Shown piece after piece: positions 6,288 to 32,000 of a stretch of DNA of 32,000 nt. The stretch is from an uncultured bacterium. Its GTDB lineage: Bacteria > Margulisbacteria > WOR-1 > CAVSGV01. The stretch spans positions 900,001 through 932,000 of the forward strand of contig OY969425.1 in assembly GCA_963699255.1 (NCBI GenBank). The letters are read 5' to 3'. Under the pieces are notes generated by a model. The model saw only the letters and a list, made by a program, of their open reading frames with translations, did not search any database and was not told the DNA's origin. The position numbers and the translations under genes were made by a program. Position 1 is the stretch's first letter; each line of letters starts with the position of its first letter.

Positions 6288-9200
6288 CTTATAACTACCA
6301 GCTTGCCGGTCTTCGTATCATTGGAGCTCCTGATAACATATAAATATATGCCGCTCCTTAATTGTTCGTTGGAATCGTTCTCGACGTTCCAGACGTTCTG
6401 GCCGTCGCCGTCGTTTTCCTGGATGGTCTTGACCAGCTGGCCCGATACTGTGAATATCTTGATCGTGCATGACGTAGCCAGGTTCGTAAATGTGATGGTA
6501 GTGTGCCCTTCAGAAGGAACGAAAGGATTAGGATAAGGATGTGCATTGGATAGACTGGGACTCGGCAGGGACATGAGCACGTAAGTGGAAAAGTGTGGGA
6601 CAGCTGCCGCAAAACATTTTTGGCCTGATATGAGCGAGCTATCCGAAACCTTTACCCATGACGAGTCGGATTCATCCAGCCAGTAAATACTCACATTATG
6701 TATGCTCACAGGCGGCGATGTCCCGTCAATTATACCGTCGTCATTATTATCGGTATATGGGAGGTATATGGTCACCTTTTTCAGGAAATTATTCGTGATC
6801 ATGGCGCCGGTATTATCATAAGCTGCAAATTCGCGGTATGTCCCCGCTATAGGATGGAATGAAGGATTCCCCTGGGATGTGATCTTCGCGTTGGCCGCGA
6901 TGATCTTGGCGGGGTTTACCGCAATGGGAGAGCTCTGCGGATCGATACTGAACTGAACAGAATAGCTCCCGCTTACGGCTCCCGAAGGGAATGCAGCCCT
7001 GGTCTTGCCGTCGCTGGCGGTAAATACATTTGCGGTCCCGCTGTCAGCAATGACCCTGAAATCCCATGACAGCGCGGCTTGAAGAGGATTGCCAGAAGCA
7101 TCACAGGCCTCCGTGGAAATATTCGCCCTGTAAGTATAACCTTTTGTTAAAGGCACTGAAGGAGTGAATACGACCCTGTTACCGATCCAGCTATAGCTGC
7201 CTATTATAGGGATATTAATTGAATTTCCGCTGCTGTCCAAAATGGCTTTTAAGGTAAAGGCGTTTTGAACGGAGCCCGTATCCATAGCGGTGGAAAACTC
7301 AGCGGATACGGTCGCCTCCGGTGTTACGTTCGCGGCTTCGCCTGTCGGCGAGAAAAATGTTATCTGAGGACCTGTCATCGATCCTGTAACATCAAAGGAA
7401 GCTGATACCGCGGTAGATAGTCCGTTAGATCGCGCCTGGAGGGTATAGCCGGTCCCGGCCCTGTTGATCATCACACTTTCAAAGGTCGCGATCCCGCCGG
7501 CAACGATCTTCGTTTTTGTCCCGGTCAGGACCCCTCCCCCCGGATTGTTCTGGATCTCAACGGTGACCATGGAGGTGTTGTTATTTGTGACCGTATTGCC
7601 GTACTGATCCCTGAGCGCGATACGGGGAGCCGGAAATAAGCTGACCCCGGCGGCAGAATCAGCAGGCTGAACCTCAAAAGTGATGTTGCTTGCAGCCGCA
7701 TTCGTGATACTGAAAGCGCTTGAAGCGGCTGACGTTAAACCTTCTGCCGTAACACTTAAAGTATATCCAACTCCAGATTTGTCGATGCTTAAGTTCTCAA
7801 ATGTGGCCACCCCGCCTGAAACCTGTTCCGTCAATGTTCCTGATAATGTCCCGCCGCTGGGGTTACTTTGTATCTCAATGGTCACAACGCTCGTGTTGTC
7901 GGTCGTGACAGGATTTCCGTATTGATCAAGGGTCCTTGCCTCCACTGACGGGGCGATATTTGTGCCTGCGGCAGCGCTCGACGGCTGAACAACGAACCCG
8001 AGCTGACTTGAAGAGGCCGGTGTAATATTAAATGCGCTGGAAGTAACAGGCGTAAGGCCTGATGACGTTGCCTGCAGCGTGTACCCTGTCCCGGACTTGT
8101 CGATGCTTAAGTTCTCAAATGTGGCCACCCCGCCTGAAACTTGTTCCGTCAAGGTGCCCGATAATGTACCGCCACCGGGATTGTTTTGTATCTCAATGGT
8201 GACAACGCTCGTGTTATCAGTTGTAGGATTCCCATATTGATCAAGTGTCTTTACCTCAATTGACGGAGCAATGCTTATTCCCGCGACAGCACTCGATGGC
8301 TGAACAATATAGCCAAGCTGACTTGAAGATGAAGATGTTATGTTAAATGTGCTGGAAGTTGACGATGTTAAACCTTGCGCCTTGACCCTTAAAGTATATC
8401 CAACTCCAGCTTTATCGATGCTTATGCTCTCAAATGTGGCAATACCGCCGGAAACCACTTTAGTCAATGTCCCTGACAATGTCCCCCCGCCAGGGTTGCT
8501 CAGTATCTCAATAGTTACAACGCTCGTGTTGTCAGTCGTGACAGGATTCCCGTATTGATCCAGGGTCTTTACCTCAACTGACGGGGCGATATATATCCCC
8601 GCAACTGCGCTCGTCGGCTGAACAATGTAGCCAAGCTGGCTTGATGATGCTGATATAATATCAAATGCGCTTGATTCAGTCGAAGTTAAGCCTGATGACT
8701 TTGCCTGCAAAGTGTACCCTGTCCCGGACTTGTCGATGCTTAGATTCTCAAATGTGGCCACGCCGCCGGAAACCTGTTTCGTAAAGGTGCCTGATAATGT
8801 CCCGCCGCCGGCGTTATTTTTTATCTCAGCAGTAACAACAGAGGTATTGTCAGTTGTGACCAGATTCCCGTATTGATCAAGGGTCTTTACTTCCACTGAC
8901 GGGGCGATACTTATTCCTGCGACAGCGCTCGAAGGCTGAACAATATAGCCAAGCTGACTTGAAGATGCTGGTGTAATATTAAATGTGTTTGAAGTAGCTG
9001 ATGTTAAGCCAGATGACGTTGCCTGCAGAGTGTACCCTGTCCCGGATTTGTCGATGCTTAGATTCTCAAATGTGGCCACGCCGCCGGAAACCTGTTTCGT
9101 AAAGGTGCCTGATAATGTCCCGCCGCCGGGGTTATTTTGAATGGCAACAGTTATATATGTGGAATTATCGGTCGAGTCAATATTGCTGTTCTGATCCTGG

Positions 9201-11116
9201 ACCGTAACTTCCACAGTTATCGGAGAACCCGCGGAAGTGCCAACAGGCTGGGTCTTCCAGCCCAATTTCGTTGAAGTGCTCTTCCAGGCCGCGTATCGGT
9301 AAACGACAGTATTTGCATTAACCGTCGCATTTGTTCCGACCTGGAATCCATTCACCTCAAGCGCTTGTACGGCATCAGCTAAATTCGCGGTCGCGGTAAA
9401 ATACTGGGTATTATCCCCTAAAAGGCTGGCCGGCCTAAGCACGGCCCCGCTGGTGACTTCCGGCCGCTTTACCCAAACGAGCCCGGGCCTGAAACCAACG
9501 CCGGTAATGGACCTGTTATCAGATCCGTTCCCGGTATAGGTGGAAGTTGAAAATTGATTACCGGTGTTCTTAAAAGCGAAGTAAAAATAAGTCGTTGCCG
9601 CCGTATTAACGACTGCGTTCGTTCCCACCTGGAATCCGCTCGCCTCCAAAGCCTGGACCGCATCAGCGATGTCAGCAGTAGCCGAAAAGTAGGCGGTGGC
9701 ATCACCGGCGATCGATGAGGTACGGAACACTCCAAAGGTCGCCCCGGTGCTTTTTACCGCCACAAGATCGGGCTGAAAGGAAAGGCAGGGCATAGAACGA
9801 TCGTCTCCGCCAGTTCCGGTGTATGCCCCGACGGCAAAGTTTGTGGAATTCGTTGTCCCTTTGAACGCCATCCAGCGGTAAGTAGTCGCTCCGGTATTGA
9901 CCGCTGCATTCGCTCCAACCGAAAATCCGTCATTATCAAGGGAGGTTACGCCATCGGCGAAACTGGCGGTTGCAACGCCCATATATGCGGTGGAATTAGG
10001 CGCCATTAACGATGTGGTGAATACTGCCGAACCGCCGGCTGTATCCGCCTTAACAATGACAAGGTCTGGCTTAAATCCCACTCCGGTGATCGACTGACTT
10101 GATCCATTGCCGGCATAGGAGCCGCTGAGCATTTTAAATGTTCCGGAAAGTGCCGGAGAAGGAACGCCCCTAAAAGCAGCATAGTAATAAGTGCTTGCTG
10201 CCAAATTCACACGGCCGTTCGTCCCTACCTGGAACCCGTCGCTTTCCAGGGTTTGAACATGGTCGGTCGCATTAGCTGCGGCAGTGAATATCTGGCTCTC
10301 GTCGCCGTAGCTCTGGTTGCTTCGCAAGGCGGCAGCATTGGTCACCGCCGACTGTTTAACGAACATAAAATCGGGCTTGAACCCGACCCCCGTTATGTCG
10401 CGGTTATCCGTTCCGTCCCCGACATAACTCCCAACGGCCATGCTGCCCGCGACCGATTTAAACGCGACATAATAATATGTGCTTGCCGCAGCATTGGTCT
10501 CTGCGTTTGATCCGACCTGGAATCCGTCAGACTGAAGAGCCTGGATCATGTTCGGGATCGGAGCGGTGGCGGAAAAATAGTGGCTATTGTCCCCGCCCAT
10601 TGAAGATGAATTCCACACCCCTAATGAGGCGCCGTCTCTTTTTACCCACACCAGGTTCGGCTGAAAACCTATACCGATGATATTCCTGTCATCGGCCCCG
10701 TTACCTGTATATGATCCGACCTTAAAATCCGCTCCCCCGCTGCCGTAAAAAGCGATCCATGTATATCGCACGTTCGCTGAATTGACGTTTGCGTTCGTTC
10801 CCAGTGAGAACCCGTCTGAATTAAGAGAGGTAATTAAACCTGTATCGTTCGGAACGGCATTCTCAAAATAAGCGGTGGAATCCCCCATCATGGCCGAGCT
10901 TTTCCAAACAGCCCTGCCGGCCGCCGTATCCGATTTAATGATCACCAGATCAGGCTGAAAACCTACCCCGGTGATCGAGCGGGAAAATCCCGTGCCAACA
11001 TAATAGCCTGTTTGAATGGAAAATGCGTAAGCGGAAGTCCCAATAAATAATATTGAGAGGAAAATGATGAAAAAAGCAATGCAAAATAACCTTCTCAGTG
11101 AACCCCCCCTCCTCAT
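6284..11116 (-). CDS. giant repeat-built surface protein (1610 aa) with T9SS-type C-terminal sorting domain
   Basis: The signal peptide is MRRGGSLRRLFCIAFFIIFLSILFIGTSAYA/F. It is followed by 6 copies of a ~97-aa unclassified repeat and 6 copies of a 105-106-aa Ig-like repeat. Next come an SbsA/Big_5-like Ig domain (ITFFSPTGEAANV...DASGNPL..SWDFRV) and a further beta-rich region. The protein ends in a CTD. Confidence 0.85.
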   Translation of the reverse strand: MRRGGSLRRLFCIAFFIIFLSILFIGTSAYAFSIQTGYYVGTGFSRSITGVGFQPDLVIIKSDTAAGRAVWKSSAMMGDSTAYFENAVPNDTGLITSLNSDGFSLGTNANVNSANVRYTWIAFYGSGGADFKVGSYTGNGADDRNIIGIGFQPNLVWVKRDGASLGVWNSSSMGGDNSHYFSATAPIPNMIQALQSDGFQVGSNAETNAAASTYYYVAFKSVAGSMAVGSYVGDGTDNRDITGVGFKPDFMFVKQSAVTNAAALRSNQSYGDESQIFTAAANATDHVQTLESDGFQVGTNGRVNLAASTYYYAAFRGVPSPALSGTFKMLSGSYAGNGSSQSITGVGFKPDLVIVKADTAGGSAVFTTSLMAPNSTAYMGVATASFADGVTSLDNDGFSVGANAAVNTGATTYRWMAFKGTTNSTNFAVGAYTGTGGDDRSMPCLSFQPDLVAVKSTGATFGVFRTSSIAGDATAYFSATADIADAVQALEASGFQVGTNAVVNTAATTYFYFAFKNTGNQFSTSTYTGNGSDNRSITGVGFRPGLVWVKRPEVTSGAVLRPASLLGDNTQYFTATANLADAVQALEVNGFQVGTNATVNANTVVYRYAAWKSTSTKLGWKTQPVGTSAGSPITVEVTVQDQNSNIDSTDNSTYITVAIQNNPGGGTLSGTFTKQVSGGVATFENLSIDKSGTGYTLQATSSGLTSATSNTFNITPASSSQLGYIVQPSSAVAGISIAPSVEVKTLDQYGNLVTTDNTSVVTAEIKNNAGGGTLSGTFTKQVSGGVATFENLSIDKSGTGYTLQAKSSGLTSTESSAFDIISASSSQLGYIVQPTSAVAGIYIAPSVEVKTLDQYGNPVTTDNTSVVTIEILSNPGGGTLSGTLTKVVSGGIATFESISIDKAGVGYTLRVKAQGLTSSTSSTFNITSSSSSQLGYIVQPSSAVAGISIAPSIEVKTLDQYGNPTTDNTSVVTIEIQNNPGGGTLSGTLTEQVSGGVATFENLSIDKSGTGYTLQATSSGLTPVTSSAFNITPASSSQLGFVVQPSSAAAGTNIAPSVEARTLDQYGNPVTTDNTSVVTIEIQSNPSGGTLSGTLTEQVSGGVATFENLSIDKSGVGYTLSVTAEGLTSAASSAFSITNAAASNITFEVQPADSAAGVSLFPAPRIALRDQYGNTVTNNNTSMVTVEIQNNPGGGVLTGTKTKIVAGGIATFESVMINRAGTGYTLQARSNGLSTAVSASFDVTGSMTGPQITFFSPTGEAANVTPEATVSAEFSTAMDTGSVQNAFTLKAILDSSGNSINIPIIGSYSWIGNRVVFTPSVPLTKGYTYRANISTEACDASGNPLQAALSWDFRVIADSGTANVFTASDGKTRAAFPSGAVSGSYSVQFSIDPQSSPIAVNPAKIIAANAKITSQGNPSFHPIAGTYREFAAYDNTGAMITNNFLKKVTIYLPYTDNNDDGIIDGTSPPVSIHNVSIYWLDESDSSWVKVSDSSLISGQKCFAAAVPHFSTYVLMSLPSPSLSNAHPYPNPFVPSEGHTTITFTNLATSCTIKIFTVSGQLVKTIQENDGDGQNVWNVENDSNEQLRSGIYLYVIRSSNDTKTGKLVVIR
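6287..6544 (-). other. T9SS type-A-like C-terminal sorting domain (CTD) of the 1610-aa protein
   Basis: The last ~85 aa read AHPYPNPFVPSEGHTTITFTNLATSCTIKIFTVSGQLVKTIQ..VWNVENDSNEQLRSGIYLYVIRSSNDTKTGKLVVIR. This matches the pattern of the Por secretion tail (YPNPF, T.I.F, I.IF...G.LV, SG.Y, K..K.V.I). Confidence 0.65.
7385..9265 (-). repeat. six tandem Ig-like coding repeats, period 315-318 nt
   Basis: These are residues 618-1244 of the 1610-aa protein. The unit is LGYIVQPSSAVAGISIAPSVEVKTLDQYGN.VTTDNTSVVT.EI.NNPGGGTLSGT.TKQVSGGVATFENLSIDKSGTGYTLQA.SSGLTS..S.AF.IT. Exact DNA identity occurs at a 318-nt offset: the 42-mer at 7781-7822 equals 8099-8140, and the 80-mer at 8732-8811 equals 9050-9129. 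Confidence 0.9.
9266..11023 (-). repeat. six tandem copies of an unclassified ~95-101-aa coding repeat
   Basis: These are residues 32-617. The recurrent pattern is F.VGSYTGNG.DNR.ITGVGF.PDLV.VK...(8-10)..S..GD...YF.A.A...D.VQALE.DGFQVGTNA.VN....TYYY.AF. Confidence 0.85.
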
Positions 11117-11567: not shown

Positions 11568-11641
<74 letters not shown>

Positions 11642-20902: not shown

Positions 20903-21772
20903 TTATAGTGAATTTATCGCTGCTCTTAAATCCTCATCGGTCAAGTGTATATACTTCCTTGTAGTATCCATGCTCTTATGCCCTGCAAGCTGTTGAATAA
21001 CAGCGATATTCACGCCCTTATTAAGCAAAGCAGTACAAAACGAATGTCTAAGGGTATGAGGGCTTAACTTCTTTCCTTTAATCCTGGCCTTCTTCATGTA
21101 ATTTTTTACAAGATAAGCAATCGTCGACTTATCAATGGGCCGATCTCTCCTGCTGATGAAAAGCTCTATATATTTATTATTTCTGACAGCCAGGTAATCT
21201 TTTATTGCCTGAGCAGTTCTTTGGTTCAATGGCAGAATCTGTTCTTTCCCGCCTTTTCTATTTACCTTGATGGTTTTTGCTTCGAGGTCAATATCAGAGG
21301 TTTTTAAGCTTGTTAACTCGTTTAACCTTAATCCCGAAGTCAAAAATAGTCTGATAACGGCAAGGTCTCTTGGTTTATAAAATTCAGTAGCTCCTGTTTC
21401 CACAGCTTTTAACAGGACATTGATCTCATCTTCTGTCAGGAAAGAAGGTTCTTTCTTGTCTAACTTCGGCGATTCAACTCCCTCAGCCGGATTATGCTCG
21501 ATATATCCTTCCTTCACCAAATACTTAAAGAACGAGTTTATACTGGAAAGCTTCCTTGCTCTGGTGGATTTATCGTTTGGCCTGTTAAACCCCTTCTTTG
21601 CCAGAAAGGTCATATATAAAATAACCTCTTTGTGCGATATGTTTTTCAAAGACTTATTGGAAATTCGAGAGACGAATTTCTTTATATCATACTCGTAAGC
21701 CTGCACAGTGCCTTGGCTATATCCCTTCTCAATACTCAGGTAGTCAAGATATTTCCTGATAATATCTTCCAT
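20903..21772 (-). CDS. tyrosine recombinase, XerC/XerD-like integrase
   Basis: 289 aa. The N-terminal SAM-like core-binding region is YLDYLSIEKGYSQGTVQAY. The catalytic residues are in TSGLRLNEL (Arg), HTLRHSFCT (His-x-x-Arg) and LAGHKSMDTTRKYIHL (Tyr). Confidence 0.88.
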   Translation of the reverse strand: MEDIIRKYLDYLSIEKGYSQGTVQAYEYDIKKFVSRISNKSLKNISHKEVILYMTFLAKKGFNRPNDKSTRARKLSSINSFFKYLVKEGYIEHNPAEGVESPKLDKKEPSFLTEDEINVLLKAVETGATEFYKPRDLAVIRLFLTSGLRLNELTSLKTSDIDLEAKTIKVNRKGGKEQILPLNQRTAQAIKDYLAVRNNKYIELFISRRDRPIDKSTIAYLVKNYMKKARIKGKKLSPHTLRHSFCTALLNKGVNIAVIQQLAGHKSMDTTRKYIHLTDEDLRAAINSL

Positions 21773-21956
21773 TTGTTTTCACCTTACCTCTAAACCATTT
21801 TTCAAGATCGGCTTTCTTGATACGCCAGTTTTTGCCTATCTTTGCCGCAGGGACGACACCGTCCTTACACCATCTTGATACTGTCATCCAATGCACCCTC
21901 AGATATTTTGCAGCTTCGCCAGATGTCATAAGTGTCTCTTTGTCATCAAATTCCAT
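21744..21956 (-). CDS. excisionase-family helix-turn-helix DNA-binding protein
   Basis: MTSGEAAKYLRVHWMTVSRWCKDGVVPAAKIGKNWRIKKADLEKWF is a classic excisionase/MerR-type HTH. The ATG at 21956 has SD GGGAGGTG; the ORF opens at the TTG at 21962. It overlaps the integrase start by 29 nt. Confidence 0.75.
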   Translation of the reverse strand: MEFDDKETLMTSGEAAKYLRVHWMTVSRWCKDGVVPAAKIGKNWRIKKADLEKWFRGKVKTNGRYYQEIS

Positions 21957-22197
21957 GATCAAAACACCTCCCTTTTTATAGCATTTCTAGTATAAATAAT
22001 AATATAGGCTGCCAAATGGACATATACCTTTTTAATGAATGGATAAAGTTGATAATGGTTGATATGGTGGTTTATTCTGTTAAATTATATTTTAATGGAA
22101 TAAAAGGTGAGCTTGATACGAAGTCTATCGTGAGCGCTCTTTACAGGGAAAAAGCGATAAAATGTTCTACTGGAAAGGCTGGGAGCAATGAATTATT

Positions 22198-23199
22198 TTA
22201 CCATTTTCCAGTTAGACTAACTCTGTGCACATTATCTTTCGTTAAACTGGTTTGAGTTACATATGCGTAATCTATACTGATGTGGTCTGCTTCAAAACCA
22301 GCTCCTCCGGTCATCGCCTGTTCGCTGTACCCAACCCTGAAAGCGATCTGTCCGAATTTAGCTTCGGCTCCGGCACTTCCTTCAGGAACATAACCGGCTT
22401 TATTGATTTGGCTGACATCACCCGATAATATCATCGGGTTCCCAATTATCGGAACTCGAGTACCAAATGCTAATCCAAGTCTATACTTCGACGGGACTAT
22501 TTCTTCCGTGTCCGTTCCCCACTTCTGATAATTGATCAGTTCATCAATTTTGAAACCTATTGAGAGATTATTTGTCGGTTTATAAAGTAGTCCCGGCGTA
22601 ACTGAATACCCATAGGCGCTGGCTCCTTCGATTGATACCAACCCTGGCATGTCTGATGTTAAATATTTGGCGGTTATGCCAAAGCTTAGATTGTCTGTAA
22701 TATTTCTTCCATAAGCGAGCAGGTACGCATTGGAGAAGTAGCTAAATATGCCGAGATTGACAACCTCGTTATATTCGCTCGTAGAAGAGCCGGTTTGGGA
22801 AACCGAACTCATCCCCACCTGTATCCAACTTATACCTAACCCTCCGCCAAAGAGCGGAGTAACATAGCTTACATAATAATGGTCGGCATTAGTGGATAAC
22901 TTTGTCTGCATAGCCGTTATTTCATTATTGTTTATTTGTGCTAGTCCCGCGGGGTTCCAGAATGGGGCATCAGCGTTATCCGCCACGGCAGTAAAAGCAC
23001 CGCCCATTCCCAAAGCTCTGGCTCCAACACCGGCTTCGAGAACGGCAATATCCAGACCAGCCTGCCCTGTTACTGCGTAACACGGGATTTCCAATGTCCA
23101 ATTCCAAATGACAAATAAAATCCCAATGACCAATATCCAAATTGGAAATTGGGATTGGGTCATTAATTTGACATTTGACATTGGAAATTTGTCATTCAT
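22198..23199 (-). CDS. PorV/PorQ-like outer-membrane beta-barrel protein (paralog of 4995..6287, no TPR tail)
   Basis: 333 aa. The motif VGARALGMGGAFTAVADNADAPFWNPAGLAQI parallels the first barrel. Amphipathic strands run to the C-terminal aromatic ..HRVSLTGKW. The ATG overlaps the stop of the upstream giant gene (ATGA). The hydrophobic leader FPIWILVIGILFVIWNW..PCYA/VTG is encoded by a low-complexity repeat. Confidence 0.55.
   Translation of the reverse strand: MNDKFPMSNVKLMTQSQFPIWILVIGILFVIWNWTLEIPCYAVTGQAGLDIAVLEAGVGARALGMGGAFTAVADNADAPFWNPAGLAQINNNEITAMQTKLSTNADHYYVSYVTPLFGGGLGISWIQVGMSSVSQTGSSTSEYNEVVNLGIFSYFSNAYLLAYGRNITDNLSFGITAKYLTSDMPGLVSIEGASAYGYSVTPGLLYKPTNNLSIGFKIDELINYQKWGTDTEEIVPSKYRLGLAFGTRVPIIGNPMILSGDVSQINKAGYVPEGSAGAEAKFGQIAFRVGYSEQAMTGGAGFEADHISIDYAYVTQTSLTKDNVHRVSLTGKW
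23100..23195. repeat. low-complexity CCAAT/ATTGG-rich imperfect palindrome
   Basis: The sequence is aattccaaatgacaaataaaatcccaatgaccaatatccaaattggaaattgggattgggtcattaatttgacatttgacattggaaatttgtc. The arms AATGACCAATATCCAAATT and GGAAATTGGGATTGGGTCATT are imperfectly complementary around ~23141. It shares a 21/24 match with 11352-11375 in inverted orientation. Confidence 0.35.
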
Positions 23200-26100
23200 T
23201 TTAGCACTGCTATATTCCCTCTTCCCGTCACGGACTTATCCCCATAATTAACGGTTATTTCAAACGGATAAATGCCGTTAAGAACCAAATCTCCCCTGCC
23301 GTTCCTTCCATCCCACTCAACATCGTTATATTTGCTCCAAATACTTGCTCCTTCGGGATTCGTCGTTCCGTCAAGCTCTTTTACTAATGCTCCCGTGATG
23401 TCATATATCCTTATCGTAACTGAATTAGGTTCTCTGCCTAGCCTGTAGCGGATTTTTGTTCTTTCTTTATTAGGATCGAATGGATTAGGCCAGTTGGTGA
23501 CACTTGATAGGCTTGAAGGCAATTCTATCCTGAAAGAGCCAACTTCAGATGTTGAAGCTTCCGAGGTGATTGTTTGCACTCTCCAGTACCAGTACGGATT
23601 GTTTGGAGTGCTTTCATCAAGACCCATAAAGTGTTCGTTCTGGGTATATTCGCATACAGGTTTTGCGGCTGAGACATCGGTTATTGTCGCTGTGAAATAA
23701 TCAAGGCTACCTGAAAGCGAAGTTTCATCGGAAGTTGTCGCGCATTCGATCCTGTAATCCTTAACATTTTGAACCCCGTACCATTTGAATGTCGGGCGGA
23801 GAGATTTAACAGTCGCTTTATCAATCGGGGAGATAAGCTCCGGCGTGCTTGAGCTGGATTGAATAATTATTGGCGTTTGAATGACAGGTTGCTCTATCGG
23901 CATAGACATGGTTGTCATACCAGAACTGGTGAATGGAGCAAAATTGCTCGGAATCTTCTGGAAGAATATTTCTGATGTTCCCGTTCTTGTGTCTTCCCAT
24001 GCGACATAGGCGTTACCGGATGTCTCGCAGACAATAGAGGGTTTGGAAGCTTCACAGTTTGTGAAGTCGTGCATGGTAATTCTGGCAGTCCCATTGCCCG
24101 GACTGCTCCAGTCTATGGAATTGCCAGCGCCATTAACAGTGCCTTTTCTGACATAAAGTTCCTTATGGCCTCCATTTGCATCATCAATATATGCCACATA
24201 GATAGTATTGCCGATCAAAGCAATTGAGGGCATTATGCAATTGCCGGAAGACGAAACAATCAATGACCCGTCCGTTGGCCATGTTTCCCCGGAATTTGTC
24301 GACAGAGTTAGATATATTTTACCTCTTGTATTTCCATTGTTCCTGTAATCCTCCCAGACGACATAAACATTGGTGCCGGCGGTATTCGTTGTAATTGCAG
24401 GATTAATCGCATCTCCATTCCCATTTGAAATCCTAGATTCGATAGGATACCAATCTGACCAATAATTCTGAGGGCCCCAAAGATATGTTGTTCCTCTGAG
24501 AGTCCCGTTTGTTCTTTTGTTATACACGATCTGATTATTGCCAAAGGACGTAAAAGTGGAAAGGACACTATAGTAATAAGGCGGAGGAGGATCATGATCT
24601 TCCGCATAATTGCTCTGCCCCTTATATTCAGATGACCAAACATAATGCGCAATTTTGCCGTTGGAGCTGGAAGCAGATAAAATATCAGGAATACTTTCTA
24701 ATGTTATTCCCGCGTTCCATCCATTATTAATAGGTAATAAAAGACTTTTCTTTCTGTTATATTCTTGCGCTTCATATGTTATCTTAAGGCCGGATCCGGC
24801 GCTTTGATTATGAGGCGCATTCGCATAAACATAAGCGTAATACTTGCCCGCAGGCAATGTTATCGATTTATATTGAGTTTTTGTAACTGTGTCGCCATTA
24901 CTGGTGTTATCCACATACCGCCATGGGCTTGAATCTGAATTATTCATATCCGAGATTTTCATGAGATAGCCACCGTAGCTATTAAGCGCCATCCAATAAC
25001 ACAGATTTAATGTTTGATGACCACTCGTAACCGTGAAAGGAAATTCAAAGTTAAGCCCAGCAGCCCCGTAATCATAATAACTTGCGTAACGTGAAATTAT
25101 TTTATCCCCAAAACTTTCACCTGTTGCATATTTTAAGAATAAATAGCCGGCAGTTTCCTGCAGATTCGGATCGTGCGAATATGAGCCGCTTTCATGGGTT
25201 GTTACTTGTTGGTCATCAGCAATAGATACTGTTTGTGTGATAACAGTATTATTCCCCGCAAGATCGGTCAGGGATAATCTTATCTGATAATTGCCTTCAT
25301 TTACATAATCACTGGGACTGGCATCGTTAAGACCTGTCCAGCTGACATATTTACTGCCGCTTGTCACAGGTTGATTTATTTTAAGTGCGGCTATCTTTGT
25401 CGCGCCGTTCCATACATCTGAATCAAGGGTAATACTTGAACAGGGAACAGTATAACCGCTCGCATTGAAAGAATTATCATCTATCTGATACTCAACCGAA
25501 ATTGTACCGTCAAGATAAGGATTGAAATAACTTCTTGGCTGGCCGTTTGACTTGATCAATATGTTTGATATTTGCGGAGGCAGATTGTCCACATTGAATG
25601 TCCTTCTTGCTTCAGCCGTATTTCCCGCCGCATCCACAGCATACAGCTCTATCGTGCAGGTTTTATTGACGGCAGACGCATCCCAGGGAATTATTGATTC
25701 ATTAGTTTTATTTCCTTCACCCGTACCAAGATTTGTGTATGAACCGTTATATCCAATAGAATAATTCACGTGATTCGCGTCGTAAACGCTTCCAATAATA
25801 TTAATTGTCCCTTTCTGCCATGAACTATCCGGCGGGCTTGTGATCTGCGCCACCGGCGCGACAGTATCAACAACAGCCTGGCTGCAATTTGAGGTTATCC
25901 CTGAAATAATGCTGTTCGTTGCCGGATCGCCTATCATATCAACAGCTTTAACTTCTATTGTATAAGAGCCATCTGATACTACCGTGCCAGATGAATTCTT
26001 TCCGTCCCAAGTGACTTCATATGTTATTCCTGCTTCGCGCGAAACCGAATCCATAAGGGTTCTGATCGTGTTTCCCGACATATCCTTAATTTTCATTGTG

Positions 26101-29100
26101 ACTTTACCGACATTGTAGCCGGACGCCATGATCTTCATCCCGGCGATCTTCATCCCTTTCGATTGCAGATAATATGGATGGACTTCCCCAGTGGTCTCCA
26201 GATTGAATGAAATGACTGTCGAATCCTTTATTCCGTCGCCGTTCGGAGAAAAATACGGGTTACTCGGATCGCTTAATATCTCGCCAAAGCTTAGATAAAC
26301 CTTATCAACCTGTATGCTATTATTGGAAACAAGAGTGGCGGTGTTTCCAAATACATCCGATGCCTTTATGACATATTTATATAACCCCATGTCCGCGTAT
26401 CCATTTCCGTCAGCGTCTCCGTTGCCTCCCCGAATATTTACCCTTCCATCCCACAAGGTATCTCCGCCTGCCGATCCAATAAGGCTACGGACAAGAGTAG
26501 AAGCGTCAAATGTAACAGCGGAGTTGTATATCCTAACTTCTACAGATGATATTGGATTTCCCACATCAGTAACCTGATACTTAATAGTGACATCGTCTTG
26601 CTGACTGTCGCCATTCGGAGTTATCGGCTCTGTGGGACTTATGCCGTTATCCGATATTTTAGGCGGGCCTCTGTCAATGATAAGATCAGCTACGAACGGA
26701 TAAACTGTTCCAGTCGGATCTGTTGCCTGAACTTCCAGCGTATAAGTCCCATCCATAACTTTACCGCCGATCTGGTTATTCAATCCGTCCCAGTTAAGCG
26801 AGTAGTTTCCTTCTCCTTTTGTATCGGTAAAACTATAGACTTTTGTTCCTGTTTTATCATAGATGTTTATCGCAATTTGCGAGTTGCCGGAGATCAAGCC
26901 GCCTTTATAGTCGATCGAATATGAAATAACCGTGTATTCATCGACTCCATCTCCGTTCGGAGAAATCTTTAGCGGGGCCGCCTCTAAGGATATCGTCGGA
27001 CTTTTAACCAATGTAATATCTCCGCCAGTTAATGAGCTGGTATTGCCGGCGCTGTCCAAAGCTGATATTTCGCATATATATTTCCCATCAGGACACATGC
27101 TGTTTGATATATCCTTCCCATCCCACACAAAGGAACCCGTGATGGGCGACTTAATACCAAAACCTGTAAATGTTCTAACTGTTGTTCCTGAAAGCGTCTT
27201 TATTTCAACCGTTGATACGATATTCCCAACCCCACCGCTTACAACATATCCTATAGTTGTAGTATCATCATGACCGTCTCCGTTTGGCGTAAAAATTATC
27301 GGGGCAGAGCTTTCTCCGGTTATCTTTAATTCCGCGCTGACCAGAAGATCAGTTGTATATGAATAAACAGTCCCCGTGGGATCTGATGCCTGCATCTTTA
27401 GCGTGTATGTACCGTCCGGAACAAATCCGCCCGCCTGGTTGTTTTCCCCTCCCCAAGTATATGAATAGCTGCCTTCTCCCTTTGTATCGGCAAGCGAGTA
27501 AACTTTAATGCCGTAATGATCGAAAATATCCATTGCGACTTGCGAATCACCGGAGATCAATCCTCCGTAACTGATCACACAGTACATTGTAGAAGCATTG
27601 GTTATACCATCGCCGTTTGGAAACAATGTTTTTGGTGCCGCATACATGGATATTGCAGCATTTGCGGCAAGAACAATGCCGCCTGAAACTGTTGGAGATG
27701 AATTGCCCGCGGAATCGACAGCCGTGATCTTATATGTATACTCGCCGTCGGGACATGGGTTGCTTGATACATCTTTGCCGTTCCAAGTAAAGGAGGGATT
27801 AGAGCCTGGGGAATAGGGACTAGAAAAGACTTTCACTGTGGTGCCCGCTAATGACTTTATCTCTACCGTTGATACACCGTTTCCGACACCACCGGAAACA
27901 AAGTATGAAATGATCGTAGTATCATCATGTCCATCCCCATTCGGCGAAAATATTATTGGTACAGCACTCTCTCCTGTTATCTGTAATCCCGCACTGACAA
28001 CGAGATCGGCAGTATATGAATACACAGTTCCCGTAGGATCTGTTGCCTGTACTTCTAATGTGTATGTTCCGTCCGGGACATATCCTCCTGCCTGATTATT
28101 CTCCCCGCCCCAGGGATATGAATAGCTACCCTCTCCTCTTGTGTCAGTAAGCGAATAAACCTTTATTCCAGATCCATTGAAGACCTCAATCGTTAATTGC
28201 GAATTGCCGGAGAATAAACCTTCGTAACTGATAGCGCAGTGGATCGTGGCAGTGTCGTCTACCCCATCATTATTCGGGGATATTGTTTTTGGATTCGCGG
28301 ACATTGTTATCGTCGGATTTGCGGCAAGAATAACACTTCCTTCTACACTGGAAGATAAGTCTCCTGTGGAATCTGCCGCGGTTATCTCATATTGATATTT
28401 TCCATCCGGACACAGGTTGTTTGATCCGTTTTTCCCATCCCATGTAAAAGAACACGTAACGGGAGTTCCAGCATCTGAATCTGTAAACGTTTTTACCGTT
28501 GTTCCGGAAAGCGTCTTTATTTCAACGGTTGACACAACACTTCCAAAACCGCCGCTTACGACATATCCTATGGTAGTATTATCATCATGATTATCTCCAT
28601 TCGGCGTAAATATCGCAGGCACGGGGCTTTCTCCCGTTATCTGTAATGGCGCGCCAACAACGAGATCTGTCGCATAATAATATATGGTTCCCGTAGGATC
28701 CGATGACTTAACTTCCAGCCTGTAAGTTCCGTTAGGAACGATCCCGCCGGTTTGATTGTTTTGTCCGTTCCACTTATTGGAATAGTTACCTTCCCCTTTT
28801 GTATCGGAGAAGTAATAAACTATCGTATTTGATCGATCATATATGTTTTCCGTTACCTGCGAGTTGCCCGTAATAAGCTGGCCCTGATAATTGATGTTAT
28901 AGTAAATGTTCATATCGCTACCGCTGGAAGAAATCGTCTTCGGGTCTGCATAAACGATTATGGTGGGATTTCTTATTAGAGTAAGGCTCCCTGTTATCAC
29001 CGATGCCTGGTTGCCGATGCTATCAGACGCGGATATCTCGTACTGATACTGGCCGTCGGGACTCATGTTATTCTGTTCATCCTTCCCGTCCCAAATCTCC

Positions 29101-32000
29101 TGATCAAAGCCCGATGATGCAAGCTGAGAGGTGAAGGTTTTTACTGTGGCTCCTGCCAACGACTTTATCTTTACTTTTGCCGTGACATCGCCAATGCCAC
29201 CAGATACTTTATATTTGAAAGTGACATAGTCATCGTGATTATCTCCATTCGGGGTGAATATTAACGGCGATGCGACAGCATTTGAAATGCTCAACCCTGA
29301 AATGATCGTGAACTGTGCTTTGCTAATCGTTTCTTCATTCCCCGCCTCATCAACCATTTTTAATCTTATGGGATATACGCCCGGTTCAAACACACCACCA
29401 CTCATCAATTTATCTTTGCTGAAAGTGACGGAATTGCCTTTAGCTTCCTGCGGCTGGCTGGATACTATATTTGATACAACCGCGCCGTAGGAATCGAGAA
29501 TATCAATTGTCACAAAGCTCTTTTCGGTTAAATAATATGAAAAAACAATGTCATCGGTCATTTGATCCAACTCCTGAATGCTTTCCTCTGAAGGGGAGAT
29601 AGCTATCTTCGATGCGTATGGCTTTGAATTGTCTATCCGGACTATCCCTTTCTTTGTGAAATTCGTTTTGGGAGTAACGGCTGAAAAGATGTAATTATAA
29701 CTTCCTTCCTTGACGTTGTTGCCGCTGTTGTCCTTGCCATTCCATTCAGCCTTATATGTGCCCCTTCCAATACCTTCGGAAGAAACAAGAGAATAGATAT
29801 TTCCGCCCATATACGTGACATACGCTTCAACTGTGCAGGTATCGGGGACGGAATAATATAATGTTATCGGATTTGGATTAGGAATAACAAGCGACATGAC
29901 TTCCGGGCTTGCCATAACATCAAGCAGATAGGCCGATTTATCTACCTGAATATTACCATCATAATCATAGACGGTTTCGTTGCCAGCAAGGTCAACGGCT
30001 GTGAAAACAAGTTTATATGTTCCGTTAGTTACCTCGCCTTCGTCGCTTTTGCCATCCCAGACCACATTATTTACGGCATCCTGCGAAGCGATAATATCTA
30101 TCTTCCTGACAAGTTGATCACTAAGGTCTTTGAACTCAAGCGAAACAGCCGCCGCCTTTGACAGAGCAAATGAAATTTGGGTGCTATCATTAATGCCGTC
30201 ATCATTCGGAGTTATCAGGTTTGTTGAAAGACTGATATTTGATATTTTGGGTTTGATAGTATCAACAATTACTTCCTTTGAGGTTTCGCGGTAATTGCCC
30301 GCCTTATCGGTCGCATTGACGTACAACAAGTAGTGTCCGTCGGAGACTCTTTTGCCGTAATAGTCTTTTCCATCCCATGAAATATTATATTTCCCGCATT
30401 CGGGTTCTCTCAAATTGAGAAGTGCGGTTATGTAATTATATTGATTATCAAAAATATTCACATTGACGCTCTGAAGCTCAATCGAACCAGCATCAGTTAC
30501 CCTGAATGTCGCATCAAGTGTGCCGGATGCAACAGGAGAGAAATAATTGTTGTTCATGAAGAAGTCGTAAATCGTTGGAGGGGTGAAGTCGCAAACGGCG
30601 TGGATCTGGCGGGCTTCGTTTCGAGCTTCACTTGTATCATCATAAGTAAATGGAGCAATCGATCCGATCTGTCCGTATCCGTCGCTATCTCTGTAAGCAG
30701 TCCCGTTAAATGCCCTGACATTTATAGCCCACAAACCTTCGCTTGGCAGGGATAAGTGAATAGACCTTGTTTCCGGAGAGACGTTATCTATCAGGACTTC
30801 CCAGTGATCTCTATCGCTTCGCTTGCCGACTATTTGATATTGTTGAAGCTGGATAAAATCGCTTTCGTGGGTGCTGCCCCATGAAATATCTAGACCTTTG
30901 TTATTTATATAATATGTTTCGGCAGTGGGAATGGTGACATGGAAATCGGAAGGCGGCAAATCGGTGCAACATGACTGGATCTTGTTTTTCTTTGCATCGC
31001 AAAAATATAATTTGTTTACACCTTTTTCATTCCTGACCAATACTTTCAACGGCGAAGGGGAAAGCCTGTGGTTGCCATAGGTGCATGTGTACTTTAAATC
31101 CTTTGTGTATCTCTGTATCCTGTGATTACCTTTATCTGCTATATAGAGTGTAGCGGCATCAGCTGTTACAGAATACGCGTAAGTTGAGACCGGAAAATTA
31201 AACCCAACATCTGACAGCGAACCAGAAAAAGAGCCTGAATAATCGAACTGTTGCACTCTATTATTAAGTGAATCTGATACATAAATGCCATTTCCTTTCA
31301 CTGAAACCGATGACGGCATACTGAATTCATCGTCAAAAGTCCCCGATATTTTATTGGAGTAAAAAGTCTTGTATACTTCATGCCCCACAAACCAGGAATT
31401 TCCAAGCTGATAATTTTCTTTGCCAATAACAATATCAAATTTAGAAGCGTTGCCATCATAATCGTATTTTAATATGCGATTATTTAGTGAGTCAGAAACG
31501 TAAACATATCCATTGTTGTCCGTTGTTATCCCCTTTGGAAGATTGAATCTTTCCCCTTCATATGTTCTTGTTTCCCAGTCATCTGAATTGGGAGGCGGGT
31601 TCATTAAATCGTGATAGTTATCTCTTTCGCGTATAAATTTCGCATAGACCTCCGGGCCACTAATATGACTAATCACCTTTAAAGAATCACTCAACACCAG
31701 GACTCGATTATGATAAGTATCGCTGACATAAACCCTGGCGCCATCCGGCGAACAGGCAATGCCATAAGGCCCGGATAGGCCGCTAAAAGAAGCAAGTTGG
31801 ATGCCATTCGGATCATATTTCACGACCTTACCAAGCTGGCAGTAGACAACATACTCATTACCGAATTTATCATATTCAAAATCGCTGATGGCAGGCAATT
31901 CGCTGGTGGGAGGGGGCGTTTCTGAAAGAAGTTCGCAAGCCGATTGCGCATTTACTCTTCCAGCTCCCATGCCTTCGCCAATATAATCAGCCGTACCTTC
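23196..32000 (-). CDS. giant surface protein (>2930 aa, N-terminus probably outside the window): NHL repeats + many FlgD-Ig-like domains + BNR/Asp-box region + CTD
   Basis: The frame stays open from the ATG at 31970 to base 32000 (..EGTADYIGEG-MGAG..) and no signal peptide is visible, so the gene is probably 5'-partial. NHL motifs are present (YVSDTYHNRVLVL, YVSDSLNNRILKYDYDG, YVSDSLNNRVQQFDYSG, YIADKGNHRIQRY). FlgD-Ig-like units recur as F(S/T)PNGDG..D...I.Y......WDGK...G....DG.Y.Y...A.D.AGN. There is an Asp-box (STNSGETW). The C-terminal domain is WPNPFDPNKERTKIRYRL..VTIRIYDITGALV..WDGRNGRGDLVLNGIYPF. Confidence 0.85.
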   Translation of the reverse strand, partial: EGTADYIGEGMGAGRVNAQSACELLSETPPPTSELPAISDFEYDKFGNEYVVYCQLGKVVKYDPNGIQLASFSGLSGPYGIACSPDGARVYVSDTYHNRVLVLSDSLKVISHISGPEVYAKFIRERDNYHDLMNPPPNSDDWETRTYEGERFNLPKGITTDNNGYVYVSDSLNNRILKYDYDGNASKFDIVIGKENYQLGNSWFVGHEVYKTFYSNKISGTFDDEFSMPSSVSVKGNGIYVSDSLNNRVQQFDYSGSFSGSLSDVGFNFPVSTYAYSVTADAATLYIADKGNHRIQRYTKDLKYTCTYGNHRLSPSPLKVLVRNEKGVNKLYFCDAKKNKIQSCCTDLPPSDFHVTIPTAETYYINNKGLDISWGSTHESDFIQLQQYQIVGKRSDRDHWEVLIDNVSPETRSIHLSLPSEGLWAINVRAFNGTAYRDSDGYGQIGSIAPFTYDDTSEARNEARQIHAVCDFTPPTIYDFFMNNNYFSPVASGTLDATFRVTDAGSIELQSVNVNIFDNQYNYITALLNLREPECGKYNISWDGKDYYGKRVSDGHYLLYVNATDKAGNYRETSKEVIVDTIKPKISNISLSTNLITPNDDGINDSTQISFALSKAAAVSLEFKDLSDQLVRKIDIIASQDAVNNVVWDGKSDEGEVTNGTYKLVFTAVDLAGNETVYDYDGNIQVDKSAYLLDVMASPEVMSLVIPNPNPITLYYSVPDTCTVEAYVTYMGGNIYSLVSSEGIGRGTYKAEWNGKDNSGNNVKEGSYNYIFSAVTPKTNFTKKGIVRIDNSKPYASKIAISPSEESIQELDQMTDDIVFSYYLTEKSFVTIDILDSYGAVVSNIVSSQPQEAKGNSVTFSKDKLMSGGVFEPGVYPIRLKMVDEAGNEETISKAQFTIISGLSISNAVASPLIFTPNGDNHDDYVTFKYKVSGGIGDVTAKVKIKSLAGATVKTFTSQLASSGFDQEIWDGKDEQNNMSPDGQYQYEISASDSIGNQASVITGSLTLIRNPTIIVYADPKTISSSGSDMNIYYNINYQGQLITGNSQVTENIYDRSNTIVYYFSDTKGEGNYSNKWNGQNNQTGGIVPNGTYRLEVKSSDPTGTIYYYATDLVVGAPLQITGESPVPAIFTPNGDNHDDNTTIGYVVSGGFGSVVSTVEIKTLSGTTVKTFTDSDAGTPVTCSFTWDGKNGSNNLCPDGKYQYEITAADSTGDLSSSVEGSVILAANPTITMSANPKTISPNNDGVDDTATIHCAISYEGLFSGNSQLTIEVFNGSGIKVYSLTDTRGEGSYSYPWGGENNQAGGYVPDGTYTLEVQATDPTGTVYSYTADLVVSAGLQITGESAVPIIFSPNGDGHDDTTIISYFVSGGVGNGVSTVEIKSLAGTTVKVFSSPYSPGSNPSFTWNGKDVSSNPCPDGEYTYKITAVDSAGNSSPTVSGGIVLAANAAISMYAAPKTLFPNGDGITNASTMYCVISYGGLISGDSQVAMDIFDHYGIKVYSLADTKGEGSYSYTWGGENNQAGGFVPDGTYTLKMQASDPTGTVYSYTTDLLVSAELKITGESSAPIIFTPNGDGHDDTTTIGYVVSGGVGNIVSTVEIKTLSGTTVRTFTGFGIKSPITGSFVWDGKDISNSMCPDGKYICEISALDSAGNTSSLTGGDITLVKSPTISLEAAPLKISPNGDGVDEYTVISYSIDYKGGLISGNSQIAINIYDKTGTKVYSFTDTKGEGNYSLNWDGLNNQIGGKVMDGTYTLEVQATDPTGTVYPFVADLIIDRGPPKISDNGISPTEPITPNGDSQQDDVTIKYQVTDVGNPISSVEVRIYNSAVTFDASTLVRSLIGSAGGDTLWDGRVNIRGGNGDADGNGYADMGLYKYVIKASDVFGNTATLVSNNSIQVDKVYLSFGEILSDPSNPYFSPNGDGIKDSTVISFNLETTGEVHPYYLQSKGMKIAGMKIMASGYNVGKVTMKIKDMSGNTIRTLMDSVSREAGITYEVTWDGKNSSGTVVSDGSYTIEVKAVDMIGDPATNSIISGITSNCSQAVVDTVAPVAQITSPPDSSWQKGTINIIGSVYDANHVNYSIGYNGSYTNLGTGEGNKTNESIIPWDASAVNKTCTIELYAVDAAGNTAEARRTFNVDNLPPQISNILIKSNGQPRSYFNPYLDGTISVEYQIDDNSFNASGYTVPCSSITLDSDVWNGATKIAALKINQPVTSGSKYVSWTGLNDASPSDYVNEGNYQIRLSLTDLAGNNTVITQTVSIADDQQVTTHESGSYSHDPNLQETAGYLFLKYATGESFGDKIISRYASYYDYGAAGLNFEFPFTVTSGHQTLNLCYWMALNSYGGYLMKISDMNNSDSSPWRYVDNTSNGDTVTKTQYKSITLPAGKYYAYVYANAPHNQSAGSGLKITYEAQEYNRKKSLLLPINNGWNAGITLESIPDILSASSSNGKIAHYVWSSEYKGQSNYAEDHDPPPPYYYSVLSTFTSFGNNQIVYNKRTNGTLRGTTYLWGPQNYWSDWYPIESRISNGNGDAINPAITTNTAGTNVYVVWEDYRNNGNTRGKIYLTLSTNSGETWPTDGSLIVSSSGNCIMPSIALIGNTIYVAYIDDANGGHKELYVRKGTVNGAGNSIDWSSPGNGTARITMHDFTNCEASKPSIVCETSGNAYVAWEDTRTGTSEIFFQKIPSNFAPFTSSGMTTMSMPIEQPVIQTPIIIQSSSSTPELISPIDKATVKSLRPTFKWYGVQNVKDYRIECATTSDETSLSGSLDYFTATITDVSAAKPVCEYTQNEHFMGLDESTPNNPYWYWRVQTITSEASTSEVGSFRIELPSSLSSVTNWPNPFDPNKERTKIRYRLGREPNSVTIRIYDITGALVKELDGTTNPEGASIWSKYNDVEWDGRNGRGDLVLNGIYPFEITVNYGDKSVTGRGNIAVLK
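23199..23500 (-). other. C-terminal FlgD-Ig/T9SS-CTD-like sorting domain of the giant protein
   Basis: The last ~100 aa read VTNWPNPFDPNKERTKIRYRLGREPNSVTIRIYDITGALVKELDG..VEWDGRNGRGDLVLNGIYPFEITVNYGDKSVTGRGNIAVLK. Confidence 0.55.
26675..29300 (-). repeat. four tandem copies of a ~657-660-nt (about 219-aa) two-domain coding super-repeat
   Basis: Each unit runs from L(Q/K)ITGES..P.IFTPNGD.HDD...I.Y.VSGG.G...STVEIK.L.GTTV..F......F.WDGK......CPDG.Y.Y.I.A.DS.GN to ..ISPN.DGV.........I.Y.G.L.SG.SQ......G.KVYS..DT.GEG.YS..W.G.NNQ.GG.V.DGTYTL.VQA.DPTGTVY... Unit anchors lie at ~29300, 28641, 27981 and 27324. The DNA copies have diverged and no long exact repeats were seen. Confidence 0.8.
30985..31883 (-). 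other. NHL-repeat (six-bladed-propeller-type) region of the giant protein
   Basis: There are at least five NHL-like blades between residues ~30 and ~330. Each has the pattern G(I/V).....G..YV.D..N.R(I/V)..(Y/F)...G. Confidence 0.65.

Follow-up and report, generated by a model that had tools for sequence, protein, structure and literature searches.

A giant protein with an immunoglobulin-like C-terminal domain and a PorV-family barrel form a conserved gene pair in a Margulisbacteria-like bacterium

The window analysed here is a stretch of 32,000 nucleotides from an uncultured bacterium of the Margulisbacteria (contig OY969425.1, positions 900,001 to 932,000). It contains two pairs of genes built on the same plan. 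In each pair, a long open reading frame (ORF) codes for a large protein, here called the cargo, which ends in an immunoglobulin-like (Ig-like) C-terminal domain (CTD). It is followed by the gene for an outer-membrane beta-barrel of a family known from the system for type IX secretion (T9SS). Pair 2, the main subject, consists of a giant ORF that runs past the end of the window and the barrel gene after it; pair 1 consists of a shorter cargo and a longer barrel, with an ATPase gene next in line. All genes of interest lie on the minus strand in the ORF list of the window. In a six-frame scan of the window with profile hidden Markov models, the count is exactly two barrels and two ORFs with a CTD, each of the latter followed by a barrel (Table 1).

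An earlier note on this DNA had described pair 2 and stated that its gene order, strand and four-nucleotide ATGA stop/start overlap repeat those of pair 1. It had also placed an integrase/excisionase module, instead of an ATPase, behind barrel 2. This description is borne out. The coordinates, the barrel motif and the open end of the giant ORF are as claimed, both junctions read ATGA, and an HTH_17 ORF and a XerC/D-like recombinase gene lie directly downstream of barrel 2, where the window has no ATPase gene.

Table 1. Coordinates of the features discussed (positions of the window, unless a locus of a relative is named).
Feature	Position	Strand	Description
Cargo 2	23196..>32000	-	giant ORF, at least 2,934 codons; 5' end beyond the window
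CTD2, terminal 95 aa of cargo 2	23199..23483	-	Ig-like beta-sandwich, ends ...NGIYPFEITVNYGDKSVTGRGNIAVLK
ATGA stop/start overlap, cargo 2/barrel 2	23196..23199	-	from the sequence
Barrel 2	22198..23199	-	333 aa, PorV/PorQ-family outer-membrane beta-barrel (NF033709)
Imperfect palindrome, 102 nt	23087..23188		within the first 38 codons of barrel 2
Small HTH_17 excisionase-type ORF	21744..21962	-	72 aa; 58.2 bits, cut-off 27
XerC/D-like tyrosine recombinase	20903..21772	-	from family search
Cargo 1	6284..11116	-	1,610 aa; Sec signal peptide, six DUF7483 stretches, Big_5, CTD1 (Pfam)
CTD1 of cargo 1	6287..6559	-	T9SS type A sorting domain (TIGR04183)
ATGA overlap, cargo 1/barrel 1	6284..6287	-	from the sequence
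Barrel 1	4995..6287	-	430 aa; NF033709; TPR tail of about 140 aa (about 4998-5420)
Zinc-ribbon + AAA_22 ATPase	3565..4986	-	partner of the pair-1 subtype only
1000-1094-aa protein of relatives	L083:12019-15303, L088:2402-5443, L001:12022-15201, L004:893-3949, L005:10853-13843, L006:1612-4719; L091-L111		SprA-like

Both barrels pass the NCBIfam model NF033709 ('PorV/PorQ family'), with 109.9 bits for barrel 2 and 126.8 bits for barrel 1 against a cut-off of 90. The model is matched by all 17 members of the barrel alignment A1, and database annotation already labels such proteins 'PorV/PorQ family protein'. Residues 58-87 of barrel 2 read VGARALGMGGAFTAVADNADAPFWNPAGLA, with the plug motif GARALGMGGAF...NPAGLA. 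When a profile of barrel 2 and its relatives is compared with the sequences of the PDB, the PorV of F. johnsoniae is the sole match (E 5e-9). In an AlphaFold2 (AF2) model of barrel 2 (pLDDT 71, pTM 0.69), 14 strands come after an N-terminal plug in which the same motif lies. The top Foldseek matches of the model are the PorV chains 8gl6_F and 6h3i_F (E 3e-13 and 9e-11; TM 0.66/0.60). Neither barrel matches the PorP/SprF family in Pfam or NCBIfam at E <= 0.01. By these profiles and by the model, the name 'PorV-like barrel', used in the earlier note, is correct at the level of family and fold, but neither protein is an orthologue of a named T9SS barrel. The two barrels are related and clearly diverged, as had been claimed: they align with 27% identity over 309 residues (E 1e-19), and Pfam TPR matches mark an extra C-terminal tail in barrel 1. 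Barrel 2 has named relatives in Candidatus Margulisiibacteriota, Saganbacteria and WOR-1. Current taxonomy assigns these to the Cyanobacteriota/Melainabacteria group within Bacillati, a long way from Bacteroidota.

The two cargos are unrelated apart from their terminal domains, in agreement with the earlier note. Nothing else aligns significantly between them, and their Pfam contents differ. Cargo 2 has its first ATG at 31970 and meets no in-frame stop between 31970 and 32000, and is therefore open at the window end. It contains NHL repeats, 12 FlgD_ig stretches, internal repeats similar to CHU_C, Ig-like matches to Big_13 and Big_3_2, and the terminal CTD. A complete orthologue of cargo 2 is available at locus L005 (loci of relatives are given as L numbers). 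Like cargo 1 it has an ordinary Sec signal peptide, and it carries a Peptidase_M23 head (L005:303-1502). Judging from these sequences, the giants seem to have a similar stalk and to differ in their enzymatic heads. What can be seen of the start of cargo 2 (31971-32000, EGTADYIGEGMGAGRVNAQ) resembles the end of a putative subtilase domain.

When the two CTDs are aligned, as the earlier note had proposed, they prove homologous, with 37% identity over 81 residues (E 3e-11). CTD1 passes the models for type-A sorting domains, TIGR04183 with 41.5-48.9 bits (cut-off 23) and PF18962 with 30.1-37.9 bits (cut-off 27), and CTD2 passes FlgD_ig with 36.6 bits (cut-off 27). The best NCBIfam matches, at the C-terminal ends of the models, are to PorU for CTD2 and to PorZ for CTD1. 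Both CTDs end in a G-I-Y...hydrophobic-x-hydrophobic-K/R pattern, and such an ending is typical of type-A CTDs. The type-B model (TIGR04131/CHU_C) finds its best matches in internal repeats of cargo 2, for instance at residues 902-1000 and 1227-1309; on the terminal 134 residues CHU_C scores 17.7 bits only, so the C-terminal location of a type-B domain is not seen. An AF2 model of CTD2, made with an alignment of 13 short fragments from a CTD2-only homologue search, is a beta-sandwich (pLDDT 88) that Foldseek matches to the FlgD Ig domain and to the PorU and PorZ entries of P. gingivalis.

CTD2 is also the best-conserved part of its cargo. It shows 71-89% identity to its orthologues, compared with 28-48% for the bodies, and the orthologues have different N-terminal heads. 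The internal Ig repeats are clearly set apart from it, the best of them scoring 87 against a self score of 507. From sequence, a conserved CTD2 on divergent bodies is the pattern to be expected of a recognition or anchoring module.

Whether the barrel belongs with the cargo can be seen from related loci. The survey comprises 80 loci from species-representative genomes, collected with the barrel profile, together with the contexts of individual homologues; the counts below come from 88 sources. A barrel is counted as paired if a CTD ORF on the same strand ends at most 1.3 kb upstream. Among 93 barrel ORFs, 84 are assessable; 51 of the 84 have such a CTD ORF, which in 28 cases lies within 150 nucleotides. 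Seen from the other side, a barrel follows 52 of 66 CTD ORFs. The density of non-adjacent CTD ORFs predicts pairing in about 0.6%. The gene-called contexts (L001, L083, L084-L087, L088 and L089) agree with the pairing.

An upstream CTD gene is present for every barrel of the Margulisbacteria-like clade (8/8), of the pair-1 type (5/5) and of metagenome-assembled genomes labelled 'Clostridia' (6/6). The same holds for 8/9 barrels in Riflebacteria, 6/8 in Zixibacteria, 7/11 in Poribacteria and 2/4 in Elusimicrobia. The counts are 0/5 in Latescibacteria/Krumholzibacteriota, 0/4 in Eisenbacteria and 1/5 in Ignavibacteria/Calditrichia/Balneolales/Gemmatimonadota. Cargo gene followed by barrel gene is a unit conserved chiefly in lineages that lie beyond the range classically ascribed to the T9SS, and the claim that the pair is such a unit and no randomly placed porin holds in this survey of relatives. 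In phyla of the Fibrobacterota-Chlorobiota-Bacteroidota (FCB) type, the barrels are usually unlinked to CTD genes, like PorV and PorQ in Bacteroidota. Two Zixibacteria loci (L023 and L056) have three tandem barrels within about 7 kb, two of them directly after a CTD gene of their own and the third after the second barrel.

The fold of the barrel alone would also suit a general FadL-type channel for small hydrophobic compounds, placed next to the cargo by co-regulation or by chance. The FadL-family structures TbuX, TodX and FadL come next after PorV in the fold search, and there are sub-threshold Pfam matches to Toluene_X (the FadL family; 21.8 bits, cut-off 29.7) and UPF0164 (20.1 bits). Such a channel should not, however, stay next to CTD genes in at least six phylum-level groups, about 100-fold over background, or co-vary with the CTD as described below, and PorV is the best match of the barrel by both sequence and fold. 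A general channel is therefore already disfavoured and must be considered very improbable.

Over 51 pairs, the distances between barrels correlate with the distances between CTDs (Mantel r 0.85, a value reached by none of 2000 permutations). The test of co-variation proposed in the earlier note thus gives the expected correlation, but it is confounded by shared phylogeny: common ancestry alone could produce it, and the result is only consistent with pairing. The two pairs of the window are as far from each other (0.86 for the barrels, 0.80 for the CTDs) as each is from modules in other phyla. Outside the clade, the nearest barrel and the nearest CTD share one foreign locus (pair 1, L054; pair 2, L010). 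Both types also occur in a second organism, represented by L083 and L084 from one metagenome. Each type has orthologous pairs elsewhere. The module is thus inherited as a unit, in two ancient types.

The source genome contains at least four barrels, of which barrel 2 (listed as P0217), P0003 and P0221 are about 90% identical. Barrel 1 has a 100% identical match encoded on a contig of 1,770,855 bp, and the other three lie on a contig of that length. This bears on the claim that one barrel per cargo indicates a stoichiometric and specific relationship. A dedicated cargo-barrel unit is supported, but specificity within the pair-2 type is doubtful on the sequences, given three barrels so similar. 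As the CTDs of this type are nearly invariant too, one barrel gene per cargo may serve supply or dosage more than discrimination. That type 1 and type 2, which differ far more (27% barrel and 37% CTD identity), are told apart is plausible from the same comparison.

The junction itself also deserves attention. No purine-rich, Shine-Dalgarno-like box is found 5-10 nucleotides upstream of either barrel start, and together with the ATGA overlap this fits termination-reinitiation. As a distinctive mark of the pair, on the other hand, the overlap does not hold up. ATGA occurs at 3 of about 11 same-strand junctions in the window, including that between the genes for BipA and an APH-family kinase at 2572-2575. 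That junction is unrelated, and ATGA is a generic operon junction, common in the source genome. Across the surveyed loci, the cargo/barrel junction varies from -28 to +150 nucleotides or contains an inserted gene, which may code for a 23S_rRNA_IVP protein, a stand-alone CTD, or, in Riflebacteria, a weakly TPR-like protein of about 231 residues. ATGA is also found at the junctions of L003, L005 and L032.

The start codon of barrel 2 needed checking because its first 38 codons lie in a palindrome. The AAAATGAA junction, the N-terminal extension and the overlapping ATG are all kept in L088, L089 and L090, whose barrels are 72-76% identical, and this conservation supports the overlapping ATG as the start. 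The alternative starts M7 and M13 were set aside for the same reason. The palindrome spans codons 4-38 and encodes the hydrophobic core of the signal peptide. It is made of heptamers similar to TTGGTCA and GACAAAT, with a partial copy at 11359-11372, and folds as RNA with -39.4 kcal/mol (z -3.3). A hairpin is predicted at the equivalent place in L088 and L089, and in L089 the sequence differs (z -5.0). In paralogues such as P0221, the signal peptide is an ordinary one instead. It may be speculated that a hairpin just after the overlapping start could keep the barrel from being translated by any ribosomes but those coming off the cargo ORF. Downstream of barrel 2, a scan for terminators gave no match.

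Other genes accompany the pair in some lineages. The zinc-ribbon/AAA_22 ATPase follows the barrel in 5/5 loci of the pair-1 type and in none of the barrel-2 type. The ATPase was considered as a shared component of both pairs and rejected, as no homologue lies near any barrel-2-type locus. The proposal that the pair is the core and the ATPase optional or shared is thus right about the pair, which is conserved, and not about the ATPase, which is fixed in one subtype and absent from the other. In two distant loci of the pair-1 type (L086:1-17195 and L087:1-16905), a cargo gene, a stand-alone CTD gene of 110-116 residues, a barrel-TPR gene and the AAA_22 ATPase gene lie in a cluster that resembles those for pili or type II secretion (T2SS). 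Their neighbours there are pseudopilin-like N_methyl genes, a response regulator, PilM/N, two small genes and a secretin. In Riflebacteria (L012, L013, L015, L016, L018, L027, L038 and L060), a gene of about 231-246 residues with a weak TPR_19 match stands between the CTD giant and the barrel, for instance at L015:9141-9836. Pair 1 and Elusimicrobia instead have barrels with a fused TPR region.

Many relatives of pair 2 add two conserved genes without counterpart in the window, so the pair, which the earlier note took as the conserved core, is not the full picture. In L083, L088, L001, L004, L005 and L006, the barrel is followed, usually, by an NHL protein of about 310 residues and then by a protein of 1000-1094 residues. 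In the latter, a hydrophobic segment lies at the N-terminus, and the C-terminal two-thirds are rich in tyrosine and strand-like. The sole family that it matches repeatedly is TIGR04189 (Sov/SprA), in 7 of 13 members over about 100 residues (model positions about 557-712; E 1.5e-10 to 1.5e-4). One member also aligns with residues 689-779 of F. johnsoniae SprA at E 0.07 (phmmer), with the motif G.DY.[IV]DYQ.G.V. When metagenome contigs are surveyed in reverse, starting from this SprA-like protein, a barrel lies directly upstream in 7 of 11 assessable loci and a CTD ORF is present in 5.

One explanation for these findings is an ordinary, complete T9SS encoded elsewhere in the genome (SprA/Sov, GldKLMN/PorKLMN and PorU), with the barrels as extra PorV/PorQ paralogues for individual giants. 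This would agree with the families of the barrels and of CTD1, which are associated with the T9SS, and with the SprA-like segment in the neighbour gene of relatives. Specialised shuttles for subsets of cargo are also used by Bacteroidota (PMC12618676). Against it stand several observations. The nearest named relatives belong to the Cyanobacteriota/Melainabacteria group, and the T9SS literature found confines the system to Bacteroidota/FCB, with no report that links it to Margulisbacteria. Among the called genes of the eight gene-called flanks of relatives, the T9SS Pfam families, GldK/L/M/N and PorU are absent. The SprA-like protein is less than half the size of SprA, and the surveyed phyla that do bear a T9SS mostly lack the adjacency of barrel and CTD (0/5, 0/4 and 1/5). 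A complete T9SS therefore seems improbable.

Another explanation is that the barrel itself is the translocator. With the CTD docked on the barrel, the unfolded giant would then be threaded through or beside it, possibly with the help of BAM, as in two-partner secretion or as an 'autotransporter in trans', and a separate translocon would be unnecessary. Two-partner secretion is indeed laid out as a cargo gene followed by the gene for its own outer-membrane barrel, nothing beyond the pair is universally conserved, and no SprA-like gene lies near pair 2 or in L002, L003, L008 and L089. The barrel, however, has the 14 strands and the N-terminal plug of the FadL/PorV kind, and a Pfam search of it returns no POTRA/Omp85 features. 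The structures of PorV show this fold as a binder beside the translocon and not as a protein channel (PMC10994853). Translocation by the barrel is thus unlikely.

The reading preferred here takes the barrel as an outer-membrane receptor and anchor dedicated to the CTD of the cargo whose gene lies just upstream, within a reduced T9SS-like module. With sequence, models and analogy taken together, its probability may be put at roughly 55%. Pair 2 would be a two-gene operon of a Margulisbacteria-like diderm. The first gene would code for a Sec-exported giant surface protein with an enzyme or adhesin head, an NHL propeller, an Ig-like array and the conserved 95-residue CTD, a beta-sandwich of the FlgD_ig or T9SS type-A kind. 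The second gene would code for the 14-strand PorV/PorQ-family barrel, whose start ATG overlaps the cargo stop and lacks its own Shine-Dalgarno sequence. Having completed the cargo ORF, ribosomes would re-initiate on the barrel, tying the supply of the barrel to the synthesis of the cargo. Both proteins should reach the periplasm by the Sec route, which for cargo 1 and the L005 orthologue is predicted from their signal peptides and for cargo 2 is presumed.

Once in the outer membrane, the barrel would bind the cargo CTD as receptor and surface anchor, as homology and the conserved gene pairing suggest. There are precedents for this step in Bacteroidota. PorV binds and shuttles CTD cargo (PMC5562754, PMC10994853), PorV serves as receptor for PorU and PorQ for PorZ, and type-B cargos bind a PorP/SprF-like barrel encoded alongside (PMC9143113, PMC12618676). 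The weakest step is the crossing of the outer membrane, which probably takes place through a separate large protein and not through the plugged 14-strand barrel. The SprA-like neighbour found in relatives is the leading candidate for this translocon, and in the source genome it would be supplied in trans. Pair 1 would represent the same unit in a second, anciently diverged version that has its own ATPase and whose barrel bears a TPR tail.

A number of results weigh against this receptor-and-anchor reading. Both barrels fail the equivalog models of the individual T9SS barrels: PorV (NF033710, cut-off 250) gives 34.4 bits for barrel 2 and 38.6 for barrel 1, PorQ (NF033711, cut-off 220) gives 36.6 and 98.4, and PorV2 (NF052325, cut-off 325) gives 74.3 and 47.6. 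The AF2 model of barrel 2 is of moderate confidence (pLDDT 71). CTD2 stays below the type-A cut-offs, with 17.5 bits against 23 for TIGR04183 and 17.9 against 27 for PF18962/Por_Secre_tail. Its fold is a generic Ig sandwich, and the Foldseek E values are modest (4e-4 to 3e-3). In the survey, the loci were selected by similarity to the window barrels, the CTD profile was home-made and iterated from the two window CTDs, ORF calling was mechanical, and taxon labels are those of the database records. As to the translocon, the TIGR04189 scores are 19-39 bits over about 100 residues, compared with a cut-off of 200, and 6 of 13 members have no match. A profile of six sequences of the SprA-like protein (A4) finds no match among PDB sequences even at E <= 10, and a Pfam search of the protein is likewise empty, so that the link to SprA rests on TIGR04189 and one weak phmmer alignment. 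Finally, a six-frame scan of the window finds no SprA-like gene or remnant. Neither of the two neighbours that relatives of pair 2 have, NHL and SprA-like, is present there, and the excisionase and recombinase genes occupy the place after barrel 2.

A wider and more tentative possibility is that the parts make up a minimal T9SS-like module, consisting of a giant with a type-A-like CTD, a coupled PorV-family barrel and a half-size SprA-like translocon, possibly without GldKLMN. It could be present in Margulisbacteria-like bacteria, probably in Riflebacteria and Poribacteria, and in others outside the FCB group, as either an ancestral T9SS core or a reduced offshoot. Should the reading be right, a tractable set of two to four genes would be available for the study of CTD recognition and of the surface display of proteins of 3,000-4,700 residues. 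The question of how the T9SS arose would be touched as well, and the means by which these uncultured lineages display their largest proteins would be explained.

The two pairs of the window are separated by a region of a different character. It contains a tRNA-Met gene, an integrase gene, a low-GC stretch with three unmatched ORFs, and fatty-acid and two-component genes. The tRNA-Met (CAT) has a tyrosine integrase immediately after it and then the stretch of 35-37% GC (together window 11567-12734 and 13000-16000), whose ORFs of 195, 431 and 237 residues have no match in Pfam or NCBIfam. By its sequence, the segment from tRNA-Met to the low-GC stretch resembles an island integrated between the two pairs. 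A GC-rich element of about 48 nucleotides occurs in two direct copies just upstream of the tRNA-Met gene (about 11400-11447 and 11493-11540; GGGGAGTAGCCCCGATTTCA.CGGGGCGTTGAGGGG.GAA.CCCCT), each with internal hairpins. There is also a sharp step in GC content, from 47-53% in window 1-11000, which holds a helicase, BipA and pair 1, to 35-45% in 11000-32000, which includes pair 2. A chimeric assembly is an unlikely cause of this step, because both barrels map to a contig of the same length.

Among known systems, the closest to the window barrels is PorV/LptO of F. johnsoniae (6H3I, 8GL6; PMC5562754, PMC10994853), their best match in sequence and fold within NF033709. Both are 14-strand FadL-type barrels with the N-terminal plug motif, and the partners of both end in an Ig-like sandwich. 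They differ in that the window barrels reach 34-39 bits against the PorV equivalog cut-off of 250. PorV is moreover one general type-A shuttle whose gene is unlinked to cargo, whereas the window barrel genes stand directly after one cargo each, in a non-FCB host with at least four per genome.

In the attachment complex of P. gingivalis, the CTD is retained and forms the contact. There, in PorQ-PorZ and PorV-PorU (PMC8545088, PMC12365241), a PorV/PorQ-family barrel holds large surface proteins at the outer membrane. The likeness extends to the profile matches, since PorQ is the best equivalog of barrel 1 (98 bits) and CTD1 and CTD2 match the ends of PorZ and PorU, respectively. Unlike that complex, however, the window proteins score below the equivalog cut-offs, the cargos are unrelated giants, and no sortase, A-LPS or PorZ-like function is evident.

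The type-B systems SprB-SprF and PG1035-PorP (PMC9143113, PMC12618676) resemble the pairs in gene order. In these, the cognate barrel gene lies right after the cargo gene, the barrel is needed for anchoring or secretion, and giant adhesin-like cargos are typical. PorP partners the TPR-containing PorE, and barrel 1 has a TPR tail. The window barrels, on the other hand, have no PorP/SprF match, and TIGR04131 matches cargo 2 only at the internal repeat 902-1000.

The FadL, TodX and TbuX channels and the treponemal UPF0164 proteins share the overall fold and the weak Toluene_X and UPF0164 matches given above. Both matches are below cut-off, and those proteins are not paired with CTD giants.

Accessory proteins of the MSHA pilus and the T2SS include an AAA_22 ATPase (MshM or ExeA) and a TPR protein (MshN). 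The pair-1 ATPase is similar, being an AAA_22 protein like TIGR03015, and in L086 and L087 the genes lie amid those for pseudopilins, PilM/N and a secretin. Only the pair-1 subtype shows this likeness; pilus and secretin genes are missing from the window, and the scores stay below every equivalog cut-off.

The T9SS literature found describes an invention of Bacteroidota/FCB, in which one general PorV shuttle serves type-A cargo and gene-adjacent cognate barrels serve type-B cargo only. The literature search returned no description of PorV-like barrels or CTD/barrel pairs outside Bacteroidota/FCB, nothing relevant on 'PorV2', and nothing that links the T9SS with Margulisbacteria. It is the combination that differs from every case described: a barrel of the PorV family, in place of PorP/SprF, is wired to a cargo with a type-A-like CTD, with several copies in a genome and in non-FCB phyla. 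The locus departs from the known systems in that PorV-family barrels are matched gene by gene with type-A-like giants, in a host placed among the Cyanobacteria-related phyla; the unit recurs in several other phyla, and in relatives of the host it has a short SprA-like neighbour.

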